This document shows, piece by piece, positions 8,589-18,352 of a stretch of 20,000 bases of DNA. Position 1 is the first letter of the stretch. Each line of letters begins with the position of its first letter. The position numbers and the translations under genes were made by a program. This DNA comes from an uncultured virus (IMG/VR IMGVR_UViG_3300044608_001664) (Duplodnaviria > Heunggongvirae > Uroviricota > Caudoviricetes > Schitoviridae), in the IMG/VR virus record IMGVR_UViG_3300044608_001664. One strand, given 5' to 3'. The notes under the pieces were generated by a model, which was not told the origin of the DNA, made no database searches, and saw only the letters and a program-made list of their open reading frames with translations.

Positions 8589-8849
8589 ATGAATGCCTGC
8601 GTTAGTAGGTACTTTGTTGACCTATATCAAGTAAATGTGCCGACCTATTACCTTGGTCATTCATAGGGTATTTCCTAATCAAATCAATGGGGTTTACTCC
8701 CATTCGGTATATTAGAAAATGACCTCTTCCTGCCCTGAAAAAGCGTGAAATATTTCACACTTTTTACTTGGTGTTCTTAGGTAACATGCGCCCCGAAATT
8801 CGGGTGTGGTTACCAAAGATAGCGTCCTTGAACCAACAAAAATAAGGAC
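8589..8849. other. Multi-hairpin non-coding element (candidate ncRNA or structured DNA)
   Basis: Five consecutive inverted repeats at 8589-8664, 8667-8724, 8738-8765, 8775-8819 and 8824-8849; no ORF of 60 aa or more. Confidence 0.5.
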
Positions 8850-8858
8850 TTAACCCCT

Positions 8859-8880
8859 TGCGCTCCGCGCATGGAATGGC
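8859..8880 (+). promoter_or_regulatory. Virion RNAP hairpin promoter P3
   Basis: TGCGC-TCC-GCGCA-TGGAA-TGGC; same spacing as P1. Confidence 0.85.
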
Positions 8881-8924
8881 AAATTCTGCCCCTATCCCTC
8901 ACCTCTTATTACTGGAGAAATATC

Positions 8925-9200
8925 ATGGCTTTCAATTCCTCTTCTGCTGCCGCTGCCACACCAGCTACCCAATCCGAAAACTGGAAGGCTCAAGGCTTCC
9001 TGAACCTGTATCTGCCGTCCAAGGGTGGCCAACGCCGTAAGCTGGGTGCTATCCCGCTCAAGGATGCCAAGGTCAACGAGAAACAACTTCGTGCTTGGCT
9101 GGAAGAAGATCCGTCCCGTGTGACGCAGCTTCTCGCCAAGCTGGAAATCGAGTATCAATCCGCTGCTTCGAATGACGAAAACGCCTTCGCTCTCGATTGA
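8925..9200 (+). CDS. Early protein, possibly N4 gp2-like ssDNA-binding RNAPII cofactor (91 aa)
   Basis: RBS GGAG; has its own promoter and terminator. Flexible N-terminus then KAQGFLNL..GAIPL, reminiscent of N4 gp2, with an acidic tail. Function is inferred. Confidence 0.6.
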   Translation: MAFNSSSAAAATPATQSENWKAQGFLNLYLPSKGGQRRKLGAIPLKDAKVNEKQLRAWLEEDPSRVTQLLAKLEIEYQSAASNDENAFALD

Positions 9201-9217
9201 CCCTGTGTTTCTCCCTG

Positions 9218-9258
9218 TAACCGTCTGTCCCTTAACTGGGACAGGCGGTTATTTTTTT
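9218..9258 (+). terminator. Intrinsic terminator
   Basis: TAACCGTCTGTCCC-TTAACT-GGGACAGGCGGTTA followed by T7. Confidence 0.9.
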
Positions 9259-9303
9259 GTCTGTTGTCCCTTTACACAAAACCAAGACAGTTGAATCAGC
9301 ATA

Positions 9304-9324
9304 GCCCTTCGGGCATGTGTTGGA
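9304..9324 (+). promoter_or_regulatory. Virion RNAP hairpin promoter P4 (GAA-loop variant)
   Basis: GCCC-TTC-GGGC-ATGTGT-TGGA; same architecture as P1-P3, placed after a terminator and before a new operon. Confidence 0.75.
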
Positions 9325-9353
9325 ATGTCTAACTTTTATTTAAGGGGATACTC

Positions 9354-9458
9354 ATGATCCAGATTATTCAAACCATCCGAGATACTGCAATGCTCGGTGC
9401 TTTCTTGATAGTGCAGGGTATTGCCCTGCTTATCGGTCTTAACCCATTCAAGGAGTAA
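9354..9458 (+). CDS. Small hydrophobic peptide (34 aa)
   Basis: RBS AAGGGG; MIQIIQTIRDTAMLGAFLIVQGIALLIGLNPFKE. Confidence 0.6.
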   Translation: MIQIIQTIRDTAMLGAFLIVQGIALLIGLNPFKE

Positions 9459-9461
9459 GCC

Positions 9462-9494
9462 ATGTCTATCTTTGTATTTGGGGGTACACTCTAG
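9462..9494 (+). pseudogene. Orphaned 5' end of the 10158..10514 gene (MSIFVFGGTL*)
   Basis: Strong RBS AAGGAG; IFVFG matches IFCFG at 10176-10190 on the far side of the HNH gene. Confidence 0.75.
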
Positions 9495-9517
9495 GTATTC
9501 ATTCAAAGGAAAAGCAA

Positions 9518-10174
9518 ATGAAACCTATCGTATATACCCTTGGGCAGCACATGCCTAATACCCGTCTTATCTTTATTCAAGAGGTGCCACGAACCAATCC
9601 AAAAGTGCGTCGTGCTACTTTTCAGTGTGCATGTGGAAATGTGGTTGATTTAGATATTGCATGGGTGGTTCACCTAAACACCACCTCCTGTGGGTGTTAC
9701 CGCAGTGAGGTAGTCGCAGAGAAAAACACCAAACATTCTCACGCAGTAAGGGAAAACACCTCTGGGGCATACCGTTCATGGCAAGCCATGCACCAAAGAG
9801 TAAAAGCAAATCCGTTATACGCCCACGTAAATGTGTGTGATCGGTGGTCCGGTGATGATGGCTTTGCCAATTTCATTGCTGACATGGGAGATCGTCCGGA
9901 GCAATTCAGTATTGAGCGACGAGACAACTCCAAAGGATATGAGCCATCCAACTGTGAATGGGCAGATAGAATTACCCAAGCCACCAACACCAGTAATACT
10001 GTTTTAGTAAGTATTGGGGATGAAACACACTCCATAAATGAATGGTGCCGTATCAAGGGAATTGTGTACCACATTATTAAGCAACGTCGCAGGCGTGGGA
10101 TGAGCATCGAAGATGCCATTACCACACCCCTTAATGAATCAAAGAGAGGACGTAAAAATGGACAAAAATCCTAA
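9518..10174 (+). CDS. Free-standing HNH homing endonuclease 1
   Basis: C.CG...TTSCGC zinc-type N-domain, YRSWQAM..R, VCDRW, F..DMG.RP...SIERRDNSKGYEPSNCEW nuclease motif, C-terminal HTH-like SINEWCR. Confidence 0.88.
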   Translation: MKPIVYTLGQHMPNTRLIFIQEVPRTNPKVRRATFQCACGNVVDLDIAWVVHLNTTSCGCYRSEVVAEKNTKHSHAVRENTSGAYRSWQAMHQRVKANPLYAHVNVCDRWSGDDGFANFIADMGDRPEQFSIERRDNSKGYEPSNCEWADRITQATNTSNTVLVSIGDETHSINEWCRIKGIVYHIIKQRRRRGMSIEDAITTPLNESKRGRKNGQKS

Positions 10175-10514
10175 AATATTTTGCTTTGGATCGAATTTGG
10201 CAGGGATTCATGGTGCAGGTGCAGCACGCTTTGCTGTAGAGAATCATGGTGCTCGCTACCGCCAAGGTATCGGGCTTCAGGGTAATAGTTATGCCATTCC
10301 CACCAAGGATCGAAACATCAACACGCTGCCCTTGGATGATATTCAAGAGCATGTGGATGTGTTCATCATCTTTGCTCAAGAACACCCTGAACTGTCCTTC
10401 GAAGTAACCCGAATCGGGTGTGGTTTAGCTGGTTATACCGATTCAGACATCGCACCCATGTTCAAGGGTGCTCCCTCAAATTGCATTCTTCCTGAAGGAT
10501 GGAGAAACCAATGA
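10158..10514 (+). CDS. Conserved phage protein, macro-domain-like (FGSN..G.HG.GAA family)
   Basis: Motifs IFCFGSNLAGIHGAGAA, G.GLQGNSYAIPT, F.VTRIGCGLAGY; AGAGGA RBS before ATG 10158. Confidence 0.75.
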   Translation: MDKNPKIFCFGSNLAGIHGAGAARFAVENHGARYRQGIGLQGNSYAIPTKDRNINTLPLDDIQEHVDVFIIFAQEHPELSFEVTRIGCGLAGYTDSDIAPMFKGAPSNCILPEGWRNQ

Positions 10515-10735
10515 ACCGAGCAGACCGTAGAGCTATCGCCCGAGGTGAGGGGCGACATGAATCCATGATCGAGATCGTCGATCATGACTCTTTGGCTGAA
10601 TACGCCTTTGCACTCTATGACTGGGATGTAGGCAGACGCATCCTTGATAACCAGTACTGCCTGTTTATCAGCCATCAACTCAGTTACTTGGATATTCGTG
10701 ATGAGTTCATGGAAGACCCATACCTACTTCACTAG
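10511..10735 (+). CDS. Hypothetical protein (74 aa, MNRADRRA...)
   Basis: GGAG RBS; ATGA overlap with the upstream gene. Confidence 0.7.
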   Translation: MNRADRRAIARGEGRHESMIEIVDHDSLAEYAFALYDWDVGRRILDNQYCLFISHQLSYLDIRDEFMEDPYLLH

Positions 10736-10744
10736 GAGATCCTC

Positions 10745-11653
10745 ATGGACACGCTTGAACAGATTCAACGGCAGGAAAACATCGAGATGCAATACAACCG
10801 TAAGCACATCGATGATCGTATTCGTAGTGAGATTGAATCCAATCTGATCATGCAGGAGAAGATCGAGCAAGGTATTCAACTGATCACTGAGTACATGGGC
10901 AAGACCTACTATGACTCCAAGAACGCACGCATTGCCCAACTTCAAGGGATGTGCCTGCGTACCTTGGTAACTGAAATCTTCGTAGGTGTGGCCTATTGTC
11001 AGATCGAAGAGTTGTTCACTTCGGTCACTGCCATGATGGCTGGACGCTTGAGGTTCTCCGATAAGCTGGATGCCATCAAGACTGTGGCTGAATTGATGGC
11101 TGTGCTCTGTCTGACTGATGCCTTCGATATCTTGAAGACTTCCAAGACATCCAGCCTGATGGTGGTATCTCGCATTCCCTTGAGTGCCAGTACCCTACGC
11201 TTCATCGAGAACAGCCAGTACCTGCCTCCGATGGTGTGTGAGCCTCTGGAATTGGTGAATAACTACTCCAGTGGTTACCTCACCCACAACGACTCGCTTA
11301 TTCTGGGGAAGGGAAACCATCACCAAGGGGATCTCTGTCTGGATGTACTCAACCTGATGAATCGGGTTCCCTTGGCACTGGCTACAGACTTCCTCAGTAG
11401 TGTTGAGGAAGATCCTACCTTCGTCACTGATACCCCTGAGAAAGCCCAGCAATGGGACAACTTCAAGCGTCAGAGCTATGAGTTTTACCTACTCATTGCT
11501 CAGTATGGCAATCGCTTTTGGTTAACACATAAAGTGGATAAACGTGGTAGAATATATTCCTGTGGATACCATATAAACACTCAGGGAACCTCATTCAAAA
11601 AAGCCTGCGTTGAGTTAGCAACCCAGGAAATTGTTACGGGAGTACCTACTTAA
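10745..11653 (+). CDS. RNA polymerase II subunit 1 (N4 gp15-like)
   Basis: 302 aa; T7-family motifs LPPMVCEP, SGYL and DKRGRIY; RBS AGGAG. Confidence 0.92.
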   Translation: MDTLEQIQRQENIEMQYNRKHIDDRIRSEIESNLIMQEKIEQGIQLITEYMGKTYYDSKNARIAQLQGMCLRTLVTEIFVGVAYCQIEELFTSVTAMMAGRLRFSDKLDAIKTVAELMAVLCLTDAFDILKTSKTSSLMVVSRIPLSASTLRFIENSQYLPPMVCEPLELVNNYSSGYLTHNDSLILGKGNHHQGDLCLDVLNLMNRVPLALATDFLSSVEEDPTFVTDTPEKAQQWDNFKRQSYEFYLLIAQYGNRFWLTHKVDKRGRIYSCGYHINTQGTSFKKACVELATQEIVTGVPT

Positions 11654-11666
11654 TTAAGGAATACAA

Positions 11667-12344
11667 ATGGCGAAACCAAAGAAGGACGTTACCGGAGAAA
11701 TCTATGGAAGACTTACCATTACAGGTGATGCACCCTATCGGTCGAAAGACCGTCGGGTGTTCGTTACCTGTGAGTGTGGAAATACAAAAGATGTTCTTCT
11801 CAATAGCCTGCGTAGGAGGGAAACCACCTCCTGCGGCTGTTACCTTCAGGAACAGATAACCAAACATGGGGATGCCCACGCACGGTTGTACAAGATATTC
11901 AACTCTGTGCACAACCGGTGCTACTTAACTTCATCAGAACGGTATTCAGATTATGGAGGAAGGGGTATTACGGTGTGTGCCCAGTGGTTGAATAACTACG
12001 AAGCCTTTCGCGTATGGGCATTGAAGTCTGGATATTCCGAGGATCTCACCATAGATCGAATCGACAATAACAAGGGGTATTCCCCTGAAAACTGTCGATG
12101 GACTACCCGAAATATCCAGCAAAGGAACAAACGTGCTTTTGTTGGGGGAACCTCTGCATACCGTGGTGTAAGCCACTGCAAGCAAACAGGTAAATGGATT
12201 GCCATGATTAAGGTAAATGGCAAACAGAAAAACCTAGGAAGGTATCCCACAGAAATAGAAGCAGCCCAAGCACGGGACACCTACATCAAAGACAACATCT
12301 TAAAGGGCTTCACACTCAATTTTGAGAAAGGAATAATCCCATGA
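11667..12344 (+). CDS. Free-standing HNH-AP2 homing endonuclease 2
   Basis: YGRLT, CECG, TTSCGC, YGGRGITVC..W, LTIDRIDNNKGYSPENCRW, and C-terminal AP2 domain (YRGVS....KWIA.I....K.LG.Y....AAQARD). Confidence 0.92.
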   Translation: MAKPKKDVTGEIYGRLTITGDAPYRSKDRRVFVTCECGNTKDVLLNSLRRRETTSCGCYLQEQITKHGDAHARLYKIFNSVHNRCYLTSSERYSDYGGRGITVCAQWLNNYEAFRVWALKSGYSEDLTIDRIDNNKGYSPENCRWTTRNIQQRNKRAFVGGTSAYRGVSHCKQTGKWIAMIKVNGKQKNLGRYPTEIEAAQARDTYIKDNILKGFTLNFEKGIIP

Positions 12345-12397
12345 AAGCCATGGTTGAGCTGGCCACACCAGAGGTTGTCACCGGTGTCCCGGCATGA
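12341..12397 (+). pseudogene. Duplicated/orphaned 3' end of RNAP subunit 1 (MKAMVELATPEVVTGVPA*)
   Basis: Aligns codon-for-codon to KACVELATQEIVTGVPT* at 11600-11653, with the stop in the same position. Confidence 0.88.
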
Positions 12398-14772: not shown

Positions 14773-14992
14773 TAACCCTATTGGACAGTCTCGAATTGCC
14801 AACAGGAACCAAGAGTCTCTACGAGCACATCCATTGAATGTGTTCCCTACTCTTGGTTCATTGCAAGAAGTTATTGACCTTGCTGAATCCAAGATGCCCA
14901 TCACTGACAAGAACGAGATGCGTAGCTTGTTAATGACGTACCACAACAGTCTTTTGAAGGTATTGAATGACGAGAAAAACCAAAAGCCTTGA
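14759..14992 (+). CDS. Conserved hypothetical protein (77 aa)
   Basis: AGGA RBS, ATG 14759, overlapping both neighbours; ends ...LLMTYHNSLLKVLNDEKNQKP. Confidence 0.7.
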   Translation: MQLPDNPIGQSRIANRNQESLRAHPLNVFPTLGSLQEVIDLAESKMPITDKNEMRSLLMTYHNSLLKVLNDEKNQKP

Positions 14993-15419
14993 AGAACGGC
15001 TTTGGGGATTAATCGATAAGAAAGCAGAAAATGAATGTTGGCCTTGGCTAGGTGGGACCGTACCTAAAGGATACGGAACTATTAAGGTACTCATTGATGG
15101 TAAGTGGAAAACATCATATGCCCATCGAGAAATCCTTAAATTGAGTAAAGGGGTGCCCATAACCCCCAGAACACATGCTCTTCATTCTTGTGATAACCCA
15201 AGGTGTTGTAACCCACAACATCTACATTGGGGAACTAACTCCAAAAATAGAAGGGAAGCACGGGACCGCTTGCATAACCAAGGGAATCAAAAACTAACTC
15301 CTCAACAAGTTGACGTAATTAGAAACGACTCCCGTACTTATCAGGAAATTGCTAATGATTATTTTCTTCACCGAGATACCATTGCTCGCATCAAACAGAA
15401 GCGTGGATGGTTACCTTAA
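14967..15419 (+). CDS. Free-standing HNH endonuclease 3 (zinc-binding loop type) with C-terminal HTH
   Basis: ECWPWLG, GYG, AHR, HSCDNPRCCNPQHL..GT...N, KLT..QV..IR...YQEIA..Y. Confidence 0.92.
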   Translation: MTRKTKSLEERLWGLIDKKAENECWPWLGGTVPKGYGTIKVLIDGKWKTSYAHREILKLSKGVPITPRTHALHSCDNPRCCNPQHLHWGTNSKNRREARDRLHNQGNQKLTPQQVDVIRNDSRTYQEIANDYFLHRDTIARIKQKRGWLP

Positions 15420-17134: not shown

Positions 17135-17221
17135 AATCTTCAGTAGATTCTCAGGCGCATTCCCTGCGCCATACGAATAGGAGGCCCATGCCTCCTTTTT
17201 CTTTTTTTGAAAGGAAATAGC

Positions 17222-18352
17222 ATGGGCGCTGCTCACCCTATTCAAACCCGGGAAATAACTCCCGAGATTCAAAAGGCTTATGATAAAGCCAAAATCGGAT
17301 TAATGGCAAAGCAAGATACTGCCTTTTTCACCACCATCGTATTCAGTCTCAAATTGATTTGGGACTGGCTCACTCCCACAGCGGCTACCGATGGTTCTTC
17401 CATTCGGGTTAGCCCAGAATTCTTCATGTCCCTCGATCCAGAGGAACGTATTTTCCTGCTGGTTCATGAGTCCATGCACGTTGCCTTACTGCACATGACT
17501 CGCCTGGCTGGACGTAACCACCAGAAATGGAACATCGCCTGCGATCACTACATCAACCTGATGCTGACCGAACGTGGCTTCCGAATGCCCAGGAATGGCC
17601 TGGCAGACCCGCAGTACAAGGGACTCAGCTCGGACGAGATTTACCCTTTGCTACCTGATCAGCCCCAGTCTTCCACCTTCCAGATGGATCTGGAACTGCC
17701 TACGGAACCAGTGGAAGAACTAACCCAAGAGGTTGAAGACATCCTGATCCGGGCTGCCATGCAGTCCAAGATGCAGAACGACAAGCCAGGGAGTATTCCT
17801 GGTGATATCGAAATCTTCCTGAATAAGCTGTTGAATCCTAAATTGCCTTGGCAAAGGATTCTCCAGAAATATATTCAGAATCTCTCAAAACATGATTATT
17901 CATGGAGAAAACCGAATAGGAGATTCTTCCCGAATCATTATCTCCCGAGTATGTTCAGCGAAAAGCTGATGGATATCGCCATTGCTGTCGATGCCTCTGG
18001 ATCGGTTAGCGATGATGATTTCAAGGTATTCGTTTCAGAAACCCACGGTATTCTGAAAATGATGAAACCGGACAAAATAACCCTGATTCAATTCGACCGG
18101 AATATCAAATCGGTAGACCGGATTAATAATATCCGGGATTTAATGAACGTTAAATTCATTGGCCGAGGTGGTACTTCTATTGAGCCAGTCATGGATTGGG
18201 CAGCAGAAAACAAACCGAAACTTCTGCTGATATTCACCGATGGTGGATTTTATTTCCATACGGATGAATATAAAACCAATACCGTGTTTCTTATTCACAA
18301 TAACCCTGGATTTACTTCGCCATATGGCAAGGTGATTCACTACGAGATTTAG
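17222..18352 (+). CDS. HEXXH metallopeptidase-like + vWA domain protein (DUF2201 type, N4 gp25-like)
   Basis: TAATDG, HESMH, WNIACD..IN, MIDAS motif VDASGS, GRGGT, IFTDG; the usual partner of the MoxR ATPase. Confidence 0.9.
   Translation: MGAAHPIQTREITPEIQKAYDKAKIGLMAKQDTAFFTTIVFSLKLIWDWLTPTAATDGSSIRVSPEFFMSLDPEERIFLLVHESMHVALLHMTRLAGRNHQKWNIACDHYINLMLTERGFRMPRNGLADPQYKGLSSDEIYPLLPDQPQSSTFQMDLELPTEPVEELTQEVEDILIRAAMQSKMQNDKPGSIPGDIEIFLNKLLNPKLPWQRILQKYIQNLSKHDYSWRKPNRRFFPNHYLPSMFSEKLMDIAIAVDASGSVSDDDFKVFVSETHGILKMMKPDKITLIQFDRNIKSVDRINNIRDLMNVKFIGRGGTSIEPVMDWAAENKPKLLLIFTDGGFYFHTDEYKTNTVFLIHNNPGFTSPYGKVIHYEI

Follow-up and report, generated by a model that had tools for sequence, protein, structure and literature searches.

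We analysed a 20,000-nucleotide stretch of DNA from an uncultured virus (IMG/VR record IMGVR_UViG_3300044608_001664), which we call the window, and concentrated on its positions 9354-10514, where a gene for an HNH-type endonuclease, HNH 1, is placed at the 5' end of a gene similar to gp14 of Escherichia phage N4. The window derives from an N4-like podovirus (Schitoviridae-type), with PHROG matches to the portal protein, the large terminase, two N4-type RNA polymerase II subunits, an ATPase and a Dda-like helicase. At this locus the beginning of the gp14-like gene is found twice, as an orphan stub ahead of the endonuclease gene and as the start of the complete gene behind it. We propose that the first copy is the native start of the gene and the second one a replacement that arrived together with the endonuclease gene.

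All the features of the locus lie on the plus strand. From the 5' side, a 34-codon open reading frame (ORF), read from the sequence at 9354-9458, closes with AAGGAG-TAA, and the AAGGAG at 9450-9455 is at the same time its last two sense codons and the ribosome-binding site (RBS) of the stub. Three bases past the stop of this ORF, the ATG at 9462 opens an 11-codon frame, MSIFVFGGTL*, that ends at 9494. Its first seven codons (9462-9482, MSIFVFG) constitute the stub, identical to the first seven residues of the homologues P0006, P0009, P0010, P0011 and P0013. The left junction follows at 9483-9494, with unrelated GTL codons and then an in-frame TAG closing the stub ORF. Next comes a 23-nucleotide (nt) leader (9495-9517), with AAAGGAAAA ahead of the ATG of the endonuclease gene, which occupies 9518-10174 and encodes P0001, a protein of 218 amino acids. 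In the tail of this gene, its K-R-G codons carry the sequence GAGAGGA (10144-10150), the RBS of a new gene start, located 7 nt ahead of an ATG at 10158. This ATG opens the replacement N-terminus MDKNPKIFCFG (10158-10190), the first 17 nt of which are inside the HNH ORF in another frame, and the remainder of the gene runs from 10191 to 10514. The whole gene (10158-10514) encodes P0002, a protein of 118 amino acids that reads MDKNPKIFCFGSN and begins MDKNPKIFCFGSNLAGIHGAGAA.

An earlier note on this DNA had placed the RBS, the stub ATG, HNH 1 and the ATG at 10158, and every one of these positions proved correct on re-reading. The join that it proposed, of 9462-9482 to 10191, is in frame, codon 10191 being the Ser of FG|SN. 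It had also claimed that HNH 1 encodes the replacement N-terminus in its own tail. This applies to the ATG and the first five codons, which fall inside the final 17 nt of the HNH gene, and not to the KIFCFG codons, which are found 3' of the HNH stop.

The endonuclease and its target gene

P0002 matched the NCBIfam family NF049995 ('A1S_2505 family phage non-structural protein') at 3.6e-47 with 159.1 bits (cut-off 45), its residues 7-115 aligning to profile positions 1-109 of 109, and matched phrog_2072 at 4e-46. Its best matches come from N4-like phages of many hosts, and in the records of phages CB1 and CB4 the homologues are annotated as 'similar to gp14 [Escherichia phage N4]'. We obtained a structural model of P0002 with a predicted local distance difference test (pLDDT) value of 93.7 and a predicted template modelling (pTM) score of 0.87. 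Its Foldseek matches were almost all macrodomains, including TARG1, DarG, Poa1p and viral nsP3, with E values from 9e-4 to 1e-2 and TM scores of 0.6-0.67 (TARG1 4j5q: E 1.5e-3, TM 0.61; DarG 5m3e: TM 0.67). The top match, 2fg1, has no known function, and the matches also included designed hydrolases (OSH55). From this model, we predict for P0002 a small macrodomain fold that comes nearest to those of TARG1 and DarG. Because the family match is full-length and the macrodomain model is confident, the gp14 product looks intact in the window. DarT-DarG systems ADP-ribosylate DNA and act against phages, and the predicted fold suggests that the gp14-type macrodomain could be a phage counter-defence gene.

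The part of the gene that is duplicated belongs to the motif FVFGSN..G.HG.GAA, which forms strand 1 and the following loop and is the most conserved part of the gp14-type protein. Over 78 distinct HNH-less sites, the F, V, F, G and N codons were 96-100% conserved at their first two positions. By this measure, the target codons in gp14 are conserved as is usual for homing targets.

Regarding the endonuclease, P0001 matched phrog_374 (1.5e-38) and phrog_3377 (1.9e-34), two PHROG families that carry the label HNH endonuclease, and no match was obtained against PDB sequences at E <= 1. At least 120 relatives are present in metagenomes, in a long form of ~210-225 amino acids and a short form of ~160-167 amino acids without the C-terminal helical part. 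P0001 is full length and keeps all the family-invariant residues. In the family alignment, E133, R134, Y141, N145 and C146 are invariant and Q154 and N157 near-invariant, giving a motif, with residues assigned by hand from the alignment, that reads (S/T)-I-E-R-x-(D/N)-N..GY.P.NC.W....Q..N. The structural model (pLDDT 83.6) presents an N-terminal small barrel with CxC...CGC cysteines, a central nuclease-like core and a C-terminal helical tail resembling a DNA-binding one. The conserved SK(R/Q)GRK tail of the family encodes a purine-rich stretch that acts as the gp14 RBS. The G+C content of the HNH gene (0.454, compared with 0.478 for the window) gave no foreign signal.

Native and replacement gene starts among related phages

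Half of the ten best homologues of P0002 (82-90% identity) begin MSIFVFGSN (P0006, P0009, P0010, P0011 and P0013), the start that the earlier note had proposed to look for in related phages, and the other five begin MAVFVFGSN, MNIFVFGSN (two of them), MSKIFVFGSN and MDQKSKVFCFGSN. The MSIFVFGSN start was present in 11 of the 119 listed homologues. Among the 117 with a recognisable motif, 80 have 1-3 residues ahead of it, and natural N-terminal extensions in the gp14 family range from 1 to 28 residues. The only DNA context within the ten best homologues is that of P0011, on contig L002, where MSIFVFGSN stands directly behind an RBS, with neither an HNH gene nor a mini-ORF, and the next gene encodes the same RNA polymerase subunit as in the window. 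The same arrangement of the start was found in two other loci (L040 and L041), with an MSIFVFGSN allele more distant from the window than that of L002. The contrary pattern named in the note, an HNH-less homologue with an MDKNPK-like start and a retained mini-ORF, was not seen among the HNH-less relatives with DNA context. Since the closest homologues begin MSIFVFGSN and the HNH-less relatives have no upstream mini-ORF, the stub is, on this comparison, the native start of the gp14-like gene.

The two copies of the motif in the window are alike in 4 of 5 residues and 10 of 15 nt, and the note had considered that chance was not excluded. We searched for the pattern [IVLMC]F[VCL]FG in the six frames of the 20-kb window and obtained 2 matches, the stub and the gene, compared with a mean of 0.185 in 200 mononucleotide shuffles. 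A scan of 1.02 million six-frame positions from 128 distinct related loci gave 13 matches outside the 91 recognised gene starts. Five of them are variant gp14 genes, another five are located beside an HNH gene or a scar (the window copy, two in L120, one in phage RiverRider and one in L044), and the remaining three rows, which represent two distinct sequences, are chance-like. Besides, all 7 residues of the stub, the Met among them, are shared with the start of five of the ten best homologues. The shuffles, the scan of related loci and this identity exclude the chance explanation that the note had left standing.

Lake-water contigs from two other runs span both junctions without any difference (X7 at 9401-9559 and 9999-10448, X8 at 10042-10287), which shows that the locus was not created by the assembly. 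The nearest record, G001, comes from this same virus (100% identity), HNH gene included. In runs X7-X10, which hold fragmentary assemblies of the same HNH-bearing phage, we found no contig joining across the HNH gene and no empty allele. One contig of run X9, at window 10278-10334, continues into sequence that agrees with the HNH-less gp14 allele of the L002 type over ~21 comparable bases, a slight hint that empty and occupied alleles may co-occur in one lake-water sample. A megablast of window 8800-11200 against the phage collection gave no match, and a pattern scan of viral contigs for DNA coding for MSIFVFGSNLAGIHGAGAA returned two contigs only, both already in the locus set. Searching for the left flank with the upstream gene (window 8871-9200) retrieved eight loci. 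One of these (L144) is the contig of L002, with its HNH-less gp14, two (L145 and L147) end short of the region and another two (L150 and L151) were left out. The last three (L146, L148 and L149), which are more distant relatives, share the upstream gene and have no gp14; L148 and L149 have the RNA polymerase gene RNAP1 immediately after a 'MNEFKLIVAG...' gene. Judging from these loci, the stretch between the upstream gene and RNAP1 is a variable region.

Close relatives of P0001 (51-63% identity) with DNA context were found in six other phages, seven counting the window. The arrangement recurs among unrelated phages, with the HNH gene directly 5' of a gp14-type gene in six of the seven: the window, L120 (178-kb contig), L153 (65.5-kb contig), Pectobacterium phage CB1, Stenotrophomonas phage C121 and Xanthomonas phage RiverRider. 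L121, on a 132-kb contig, is identical to the L120 stretch, and L152 is L120's own contig; they were counted once. In four of the five other loci, 4 to 11 nt are shared by the gp14 start and the HNH 3' end, and in L153 the start lies 3 nt past the stop. In the seventh phage, Klebsiella phage GADU21, the HNH gene is ~1 kb downstream of gp14. Among the more distant HNH relatives (<= 41% identity), none out of 78 had gp14 within 1.5 kb, and 119 gp14-bearing loci had no such HNH in the fetched DNA, some of them with short upstream flanks. Among named phages, 457 records have gp14 and only 4 phages have a close HNH. According to these counts, the association of the HNH gene with the gp14 target is specific to the P0001 lineage.

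Stubs 5' of the HNH gene are present in the window (MSIFVFG|), RiverRider (MLVFVFG|), L153 (MIFVFG|) and L120 (two copies). When the stub-like copy in L044, described below, is included, there are six stubs, and in five of them the similarity to the gene goes no further than the Gly codon. After the break, RiverRider has a Y and then a stop and L153 has eight codons and then a stop, the in-frame stop being 0 to 8 codons past the break in RiverRider, L120 and L153. From the stub stop to the HNH ATG there are 23 nt in the window, 10 nt in RiverRider, 8 nt in L153 and ~60 nt in L120. An alignment of the leaders of the four cassettes, from the break to the HNH start, neither established nor excluded a convincing homology.

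The two L120 stubs are found in tandem at 853-961 and in different frames. The first one reads ATG853...DRIFVFGSN-stop, and the second (941-961, SRCFLFVFG) resembles a replacement start (MTSRCFVFG) and not a native one; the pair may be the trace of serial events. In L044 (2546-2760), a start of native appearance, ATG-MKQIFVFG, is separated by 183 nt of unrelated filler from the gp14 gene (...VRQIFVFGSN); no HNH was detected there, and the locus may be the scar of a lost endonuclease gene. In L232, a 37-residue HNH remnant (1356-1466 on the reverse strand; residues 125-160, 54% identity) adjoins a gp14 gene starting MSKMIFCFGSN, and L233 has an FCF-type start and no HNH. For phage C121 (L139, 1489-2055), the tblastn match to P0001 (1501-2055) extends ~57 nt beyond the annotated HNH end (1998) and into the annotated gp14 start, and its endonuclease may carry a premature stop. 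By sequence comparison, the short forms of 160-167 amino acids, the L232 remnant and the L044 scar represent the stages of decay through which homing genes typically pass.

Phages CB1 and CB4 illustrate the sporadic presence of the element at one fixed locus, the first with the HNH gene and the second without it, on flanks that are 96.8% identical. This identity was measured over 1466 nt starting at the first Phe codon of the motif. From the 47 mismatches, 13 fall in the first 39 nt (the FVFGSN..HGAG codons), after which identity is at the background level. Upstream of the motif the two phages are wholly different, with one small gene and the HNH gene in CB1 and three other genes in CB4. Read as an alignment, this is the pattern that a short donor tract leaves around a break.

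The donor tract of the window was judged from protein comparison only. The comparison used the sites that distinguish P0005, the homologue that begins MDQKSKVFCFGSN, from P0004, the closest homologue of P0002 overall. At residues 6, 9, 28 and 38, P0002 agrees with P0005, and at the next 11 sites (residues 40-104) it agrees with P0004 in 10 of the 11. P0002 is a mosaic with a switch near residue 39, the first four sites being grouped in 11 of 3003 orderings by a hand count and in a post hoc test. Codons 1 to ~38 (10158-10274) are, from this comparison, a probable donor-derived conversion tract. The replacement start was probably not purpose-built, and the donor phage's own gene start would have been copied with the HNH gene in a longer conversion tract.

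Origin of the double gene start

We think it probable, although by no means settled, that HNH 1 and the gp14 start behind it are the product of homing by break repair, in which an endonuclease gene and a donor gene start were copied together. The anatomy of the locus, its recurrence, the presence and absence of the HNH gene among relatives and the recombination boundary at the site would follow from such an event. HNH 1 would be a free-standing homing endonuclease gene, of a lineage that targets the most conserved codons of gp14, and an ancestor of the window phage would have had the native MSIFVFGSN allele. During co-infection with an HNH-bearing phage, this native allele would have been cut at or beside the Gly|Ser codon boundary. 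Its right end would then have been repaired by homologous recombination inside gp14, invading the donor gp14 and copying leftwards through the ~38 first codons, the MDKNPKIFCFG start, the ATG, the RBS in the HNH tail and the HNH gene. The left end would have been without usable homology, because the genes upstream of gp14 vary among phages (a 123-codon gene in L002, the 34-codon ORF in the window, and genes unlike each other in CB1 and CB4). A non-homologous join at this side would have frozen the recipient RBS, ATG and seven codons as the stub. Where left homology was present, or after a later deletion, no stub would be left, as might be the case of CB1 and C121, and HNH-less relatives with the same left flank would run from AAGGAGTAAGCC-ATG straight into the gene. 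The insertion would be harmless to the phage, because a full-length macrodomain would be translated from the new start, with its RBS in the HNH tail. The copied tract diverges at wobble positions, and these differences probably keep the HNH-bearing allele safe from further cutting.

Several observations weigh against this interpretation. No near-identical HNH-less allele with the same left flank appeared among the phage collection, the nearest record, the left-flank relatives or the runs, and for this reason the borders of the window insertion are drawn from protein comparison. The non-homologous join at the left is read solely from the absence of conserved upstream genes. CB1 and C121 bear the HNH gene and are stub-less, and one of the L120 stubs ends 7 nt later than the others. 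In L120, RiverRider, L153 and CB1, the gene-adjacent copy keeps the FVFGSN core of uncut alleles, although the HNH-bearing allele would have to escape cutting. Regarding the nature of the enzyme, P0001 matched 0 families of Pfam-A at E <= 0.1 and 0 of NCBIfam at E <= 1, and with its model Foldseek retrieved nothing from the PDB at E <= 0.001. The first His of the canonical HNH motif is missing from its usual position and is apparently replaced (I-E-R-R-D-N). An exhaustive structural scan with VIA-align had as its top match the HNH restriction enzyme PacI (3m7k_A), with a root mean square deviation of 2.8 over 79 residues (model 73-161) and a Z of 6.2, below the ~8 advised for the tool. We keep the term 'HNH-type' with reservation because the PacI match fits the HNH core but is under the safe level.

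One could also argue, taking the earlier note strictly, for a dedicated cassette, formed by the leader, the HNH gene, the new start and xFxFG, that always inserts at the Gly|Ser boundary. The resident ...FVFG would act as its left homology arm, the stub would be regenerated at each homing, and the HNH tail would have evolved to carry the RBS and start of its target. This is possible, although we find it doubtful. It agrees with the break codon that five of the six stubs have in common, with a gp14 start that overlaps the HNH stop or trails it by 3 nt in all six loci, with the SK(R/Q)GRK tail that encodes the purine-rich RBS stretch, and with the in-frame stop 0 to 8 codons past each break. However, CB1 and C121 have the HNH gene and the new start and no stub, the sequences after the break are not convincingly homologous between cassettes, and a left arm of 15-20 nt is very short for homologous repair. 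The donor-type tract, moreover, extends well past the duplicated codons, which fits ordinary co-conversion from an HNH gene ahead of gp14. The constant break point is explained equally well by break repair and by the cassette, and the stub-less phages and long donor tracts less well by the cassette; the description given in the earlier note is correct under both models. A related idea, to which we give limited credence, is that the HNH lineage is a self-contained gene-start replacement module, whose C-terminal codons are shaped as RBS, start and first beta-strand and whose orphan RBS and mini-ORF feed ribosomes to the endonuclease gene. If true, a homing gene would settle at the 5' end of a protein gene with no need of an intron, an intein or homology on the left flank, and would jump between unrelated phages (N4-like and a 178-kb phage). 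Since the target looks like an ADP-ribose hydrolase of the DarG/TARG1 type, the element would then shuffle the active-site-coding part of a likely counter-defence gene among phages.

Concerning the maintenance of the stub and not its origin, and compatible with either origin model, the stub might be kept as a functional short upstream ORF, with ribosomes loading at the native RBS, terminating past the break and re-initiating on the HNH gene. The stub keeps AAGGAG and ATG intact, and the stop precedes the HNH ATG by only 23, 10 and 8 nt in the window, RiverRider and L153, respectively. Even so, we judge this function unlikely, given the distance of ~60 nt in L120, the absence of a stub in CB1 and C121 and the purine-rich leader that the HNH gene has of its own. 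Removal of the insert at the RNA level, by a self-splicing intron or otherwise, would turn the stub into an exon 1 joined to codon 10191 and give the native protein, and such a join is in frame and restores the start of the closest homologues. Yet no Rfam family, introns of groups I and II included, matched 9200-10500 on either strand at E <= 1, a search that covers the families held in Rfam. Furthermore, in all six loci the insert ends with an RBS, an in-frame ATG and a second xFxFG copy, for which an intron offers no reason, and CB1 and C121 are without any exon 1, so splicing appears very improbable. As for a chance resemblance or an assembly chimera, what would speak for it is the limited likeness of the window copies (4 of 5 residues, 10 of 15 nt). 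Against this stand the motif counts, the full identity of the stub with native starts (7 of 7), the junction-spanning contigs of other runs and the same arrangement in cultured, fully sequenced phages, and we find this explanation hardly credible at all.

Related elements and significance

Other endonuclease genes are present in the window. HNH 2 (11667-12344; phrog_374 at 1e-67) lies between two RNA polymerase II subunit genes, and RNAP1 residues 286-302 are duplicated at 12344-12394, right behind it, with 88% identity to the L002 protein. From this arrangement, HNH 2 is a 3'-end replacement cassette of the mORF type described below. The earlier comparison of HNH 1 to a mirror image of the other cassettes holds for HNH 2, in which the duplicated RNAP1 end lies 3' of the endonuclease gene. 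HNH 3 (14967-15419) matched phrog_1872 and phrog_3593, both endonuclease-labelled, and an ORF of 381 amino acids at 17207-18352 matched phrog_1314 (4e-127), labelled HNH. In L120/L152, the gp14 gene with an HNH gene at its 5' end is also followed by a second, distantly related HNH-like ORF (2013-2654), past which there is a duplicate of the gp14 C-terminus (2660-2740; residues 90-116, 70% identity). Both ends of the L120 gp14 appear to have been replaced by endonuclease cassettes. Upstream of the locus, we noted a strong terminator-like hairpin at 9217-9252 (a 15-bp stem with 8 G-C pairs, then a T run), ~100 nt 5' of the 34-codon ORF, and a small GC hairpin, GCCC-TTCG-GGC, at ~9304-9314. A promoter scan of the region on the plus strand found none.

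In order to contextualize these results, we compared the locus with known systems as they are described in excerpts of the papers cited here. The mORFs of fungal mitochondria carry a substitute C-terminus, as in atp6 of Allomyces macrogynus (cited in PMC3630166 as its ref. 48) and atp6, atp9, cox2 and nad3 of Glomus sp. (PMC3630166). As in those cases, the endonuclease ORF in the window would travel with an adjacent end of the target gene and the hybrid gene is whole, and the native end is left as an unused remnant that is nearer to relatives than the inserted copy (PMC3630166). Here, the stub agrees in 7 of 7 residues with the closest homologues, and the copy in use differs from them (IFCFG and a 6-residue extension). 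The mORFs replace a 3' end, are of the LAGLIDADG or GIY-YIG type and reside in mitochondria, whereas the window presents a 5' end, an HNH-like protein and a lytic phage (PMC3630166). Because it is the 5' end that is replaced, an RBS and a start codon must be supplied in the window case. The WHO elements of Torulaspora and Lachancea yeasts are similar in that they insert in a conserved protein gene without intron or intein and replace one of its ends at each homing, with an allele-specific cleavage that for the window is a prediction (PMC7282813). They differ in replacing the FBA1 3' end, in being intein-derived and in forming clusters downstream of the target (PMC7282813). Compared in this way, the window element functions like the mORF/WHO type but is a variant, and not a member of the described families, as it occupies the 5' and not the 3' end.

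To our knowledge, T4-type free-standing endonuclease genes are flanked by genes that are intact, with no gene start duplicated. The window element shares with SegB (PMC2330249), MobE (PMC2790892) and others reviewed in PMC2988022 the position of a stand-alone endonuclease gene beside the gene that is cut. It would also share with them the spread during co-infection by break repair, the co-conversion of flanking sequence and the sporadic presence (PMC2330249, PMC2790892). Barth, Dunham and Seed (2023) described nuclease genes at the edges of exchanged phage blocks, near or within important genes (PMC10448857), and the CB1/CB4 boundary is an example of such an edge. Their cases, in the excerpts of that paper, are intron-borne, intergenic and one split ribonucleotide reductase, with gene-start replacement not among them (PMC10448857). 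In the excerpts of the CB1 paper, CB1_11 is not among the listed homing endonucleases and gp14 is not mentioned (PMC6027278). Keyword searches of open-access papers and preprints found no description of a phage stub plus replacement start, which does not prove its absence from print.

As far as sequence comparison goes, the feature is real, recurrent and well explained as a 5'-end, phage, HNH-type form of a known selfish-element logic. It provides several independent natural examples of a homing endonuclease that occupies the very start of a protein gene without harm, the 5' counterpart of the C-terminus-replacing elements of fungal mitochondria and yeasts. The stub marks the probable cut position to a few bases, and offers a testable target for an HNH-like family that Pfam misses. 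In genomes with this arrangement, gene callers will report a meaningless mini-ORF, and the foreign first codons will confound any phylogeny of gp14-type genes. For a widespread phage macrodomain, present in 457 phage records, the element would mean that the region coding for its conserved loop is exchanged among phages.

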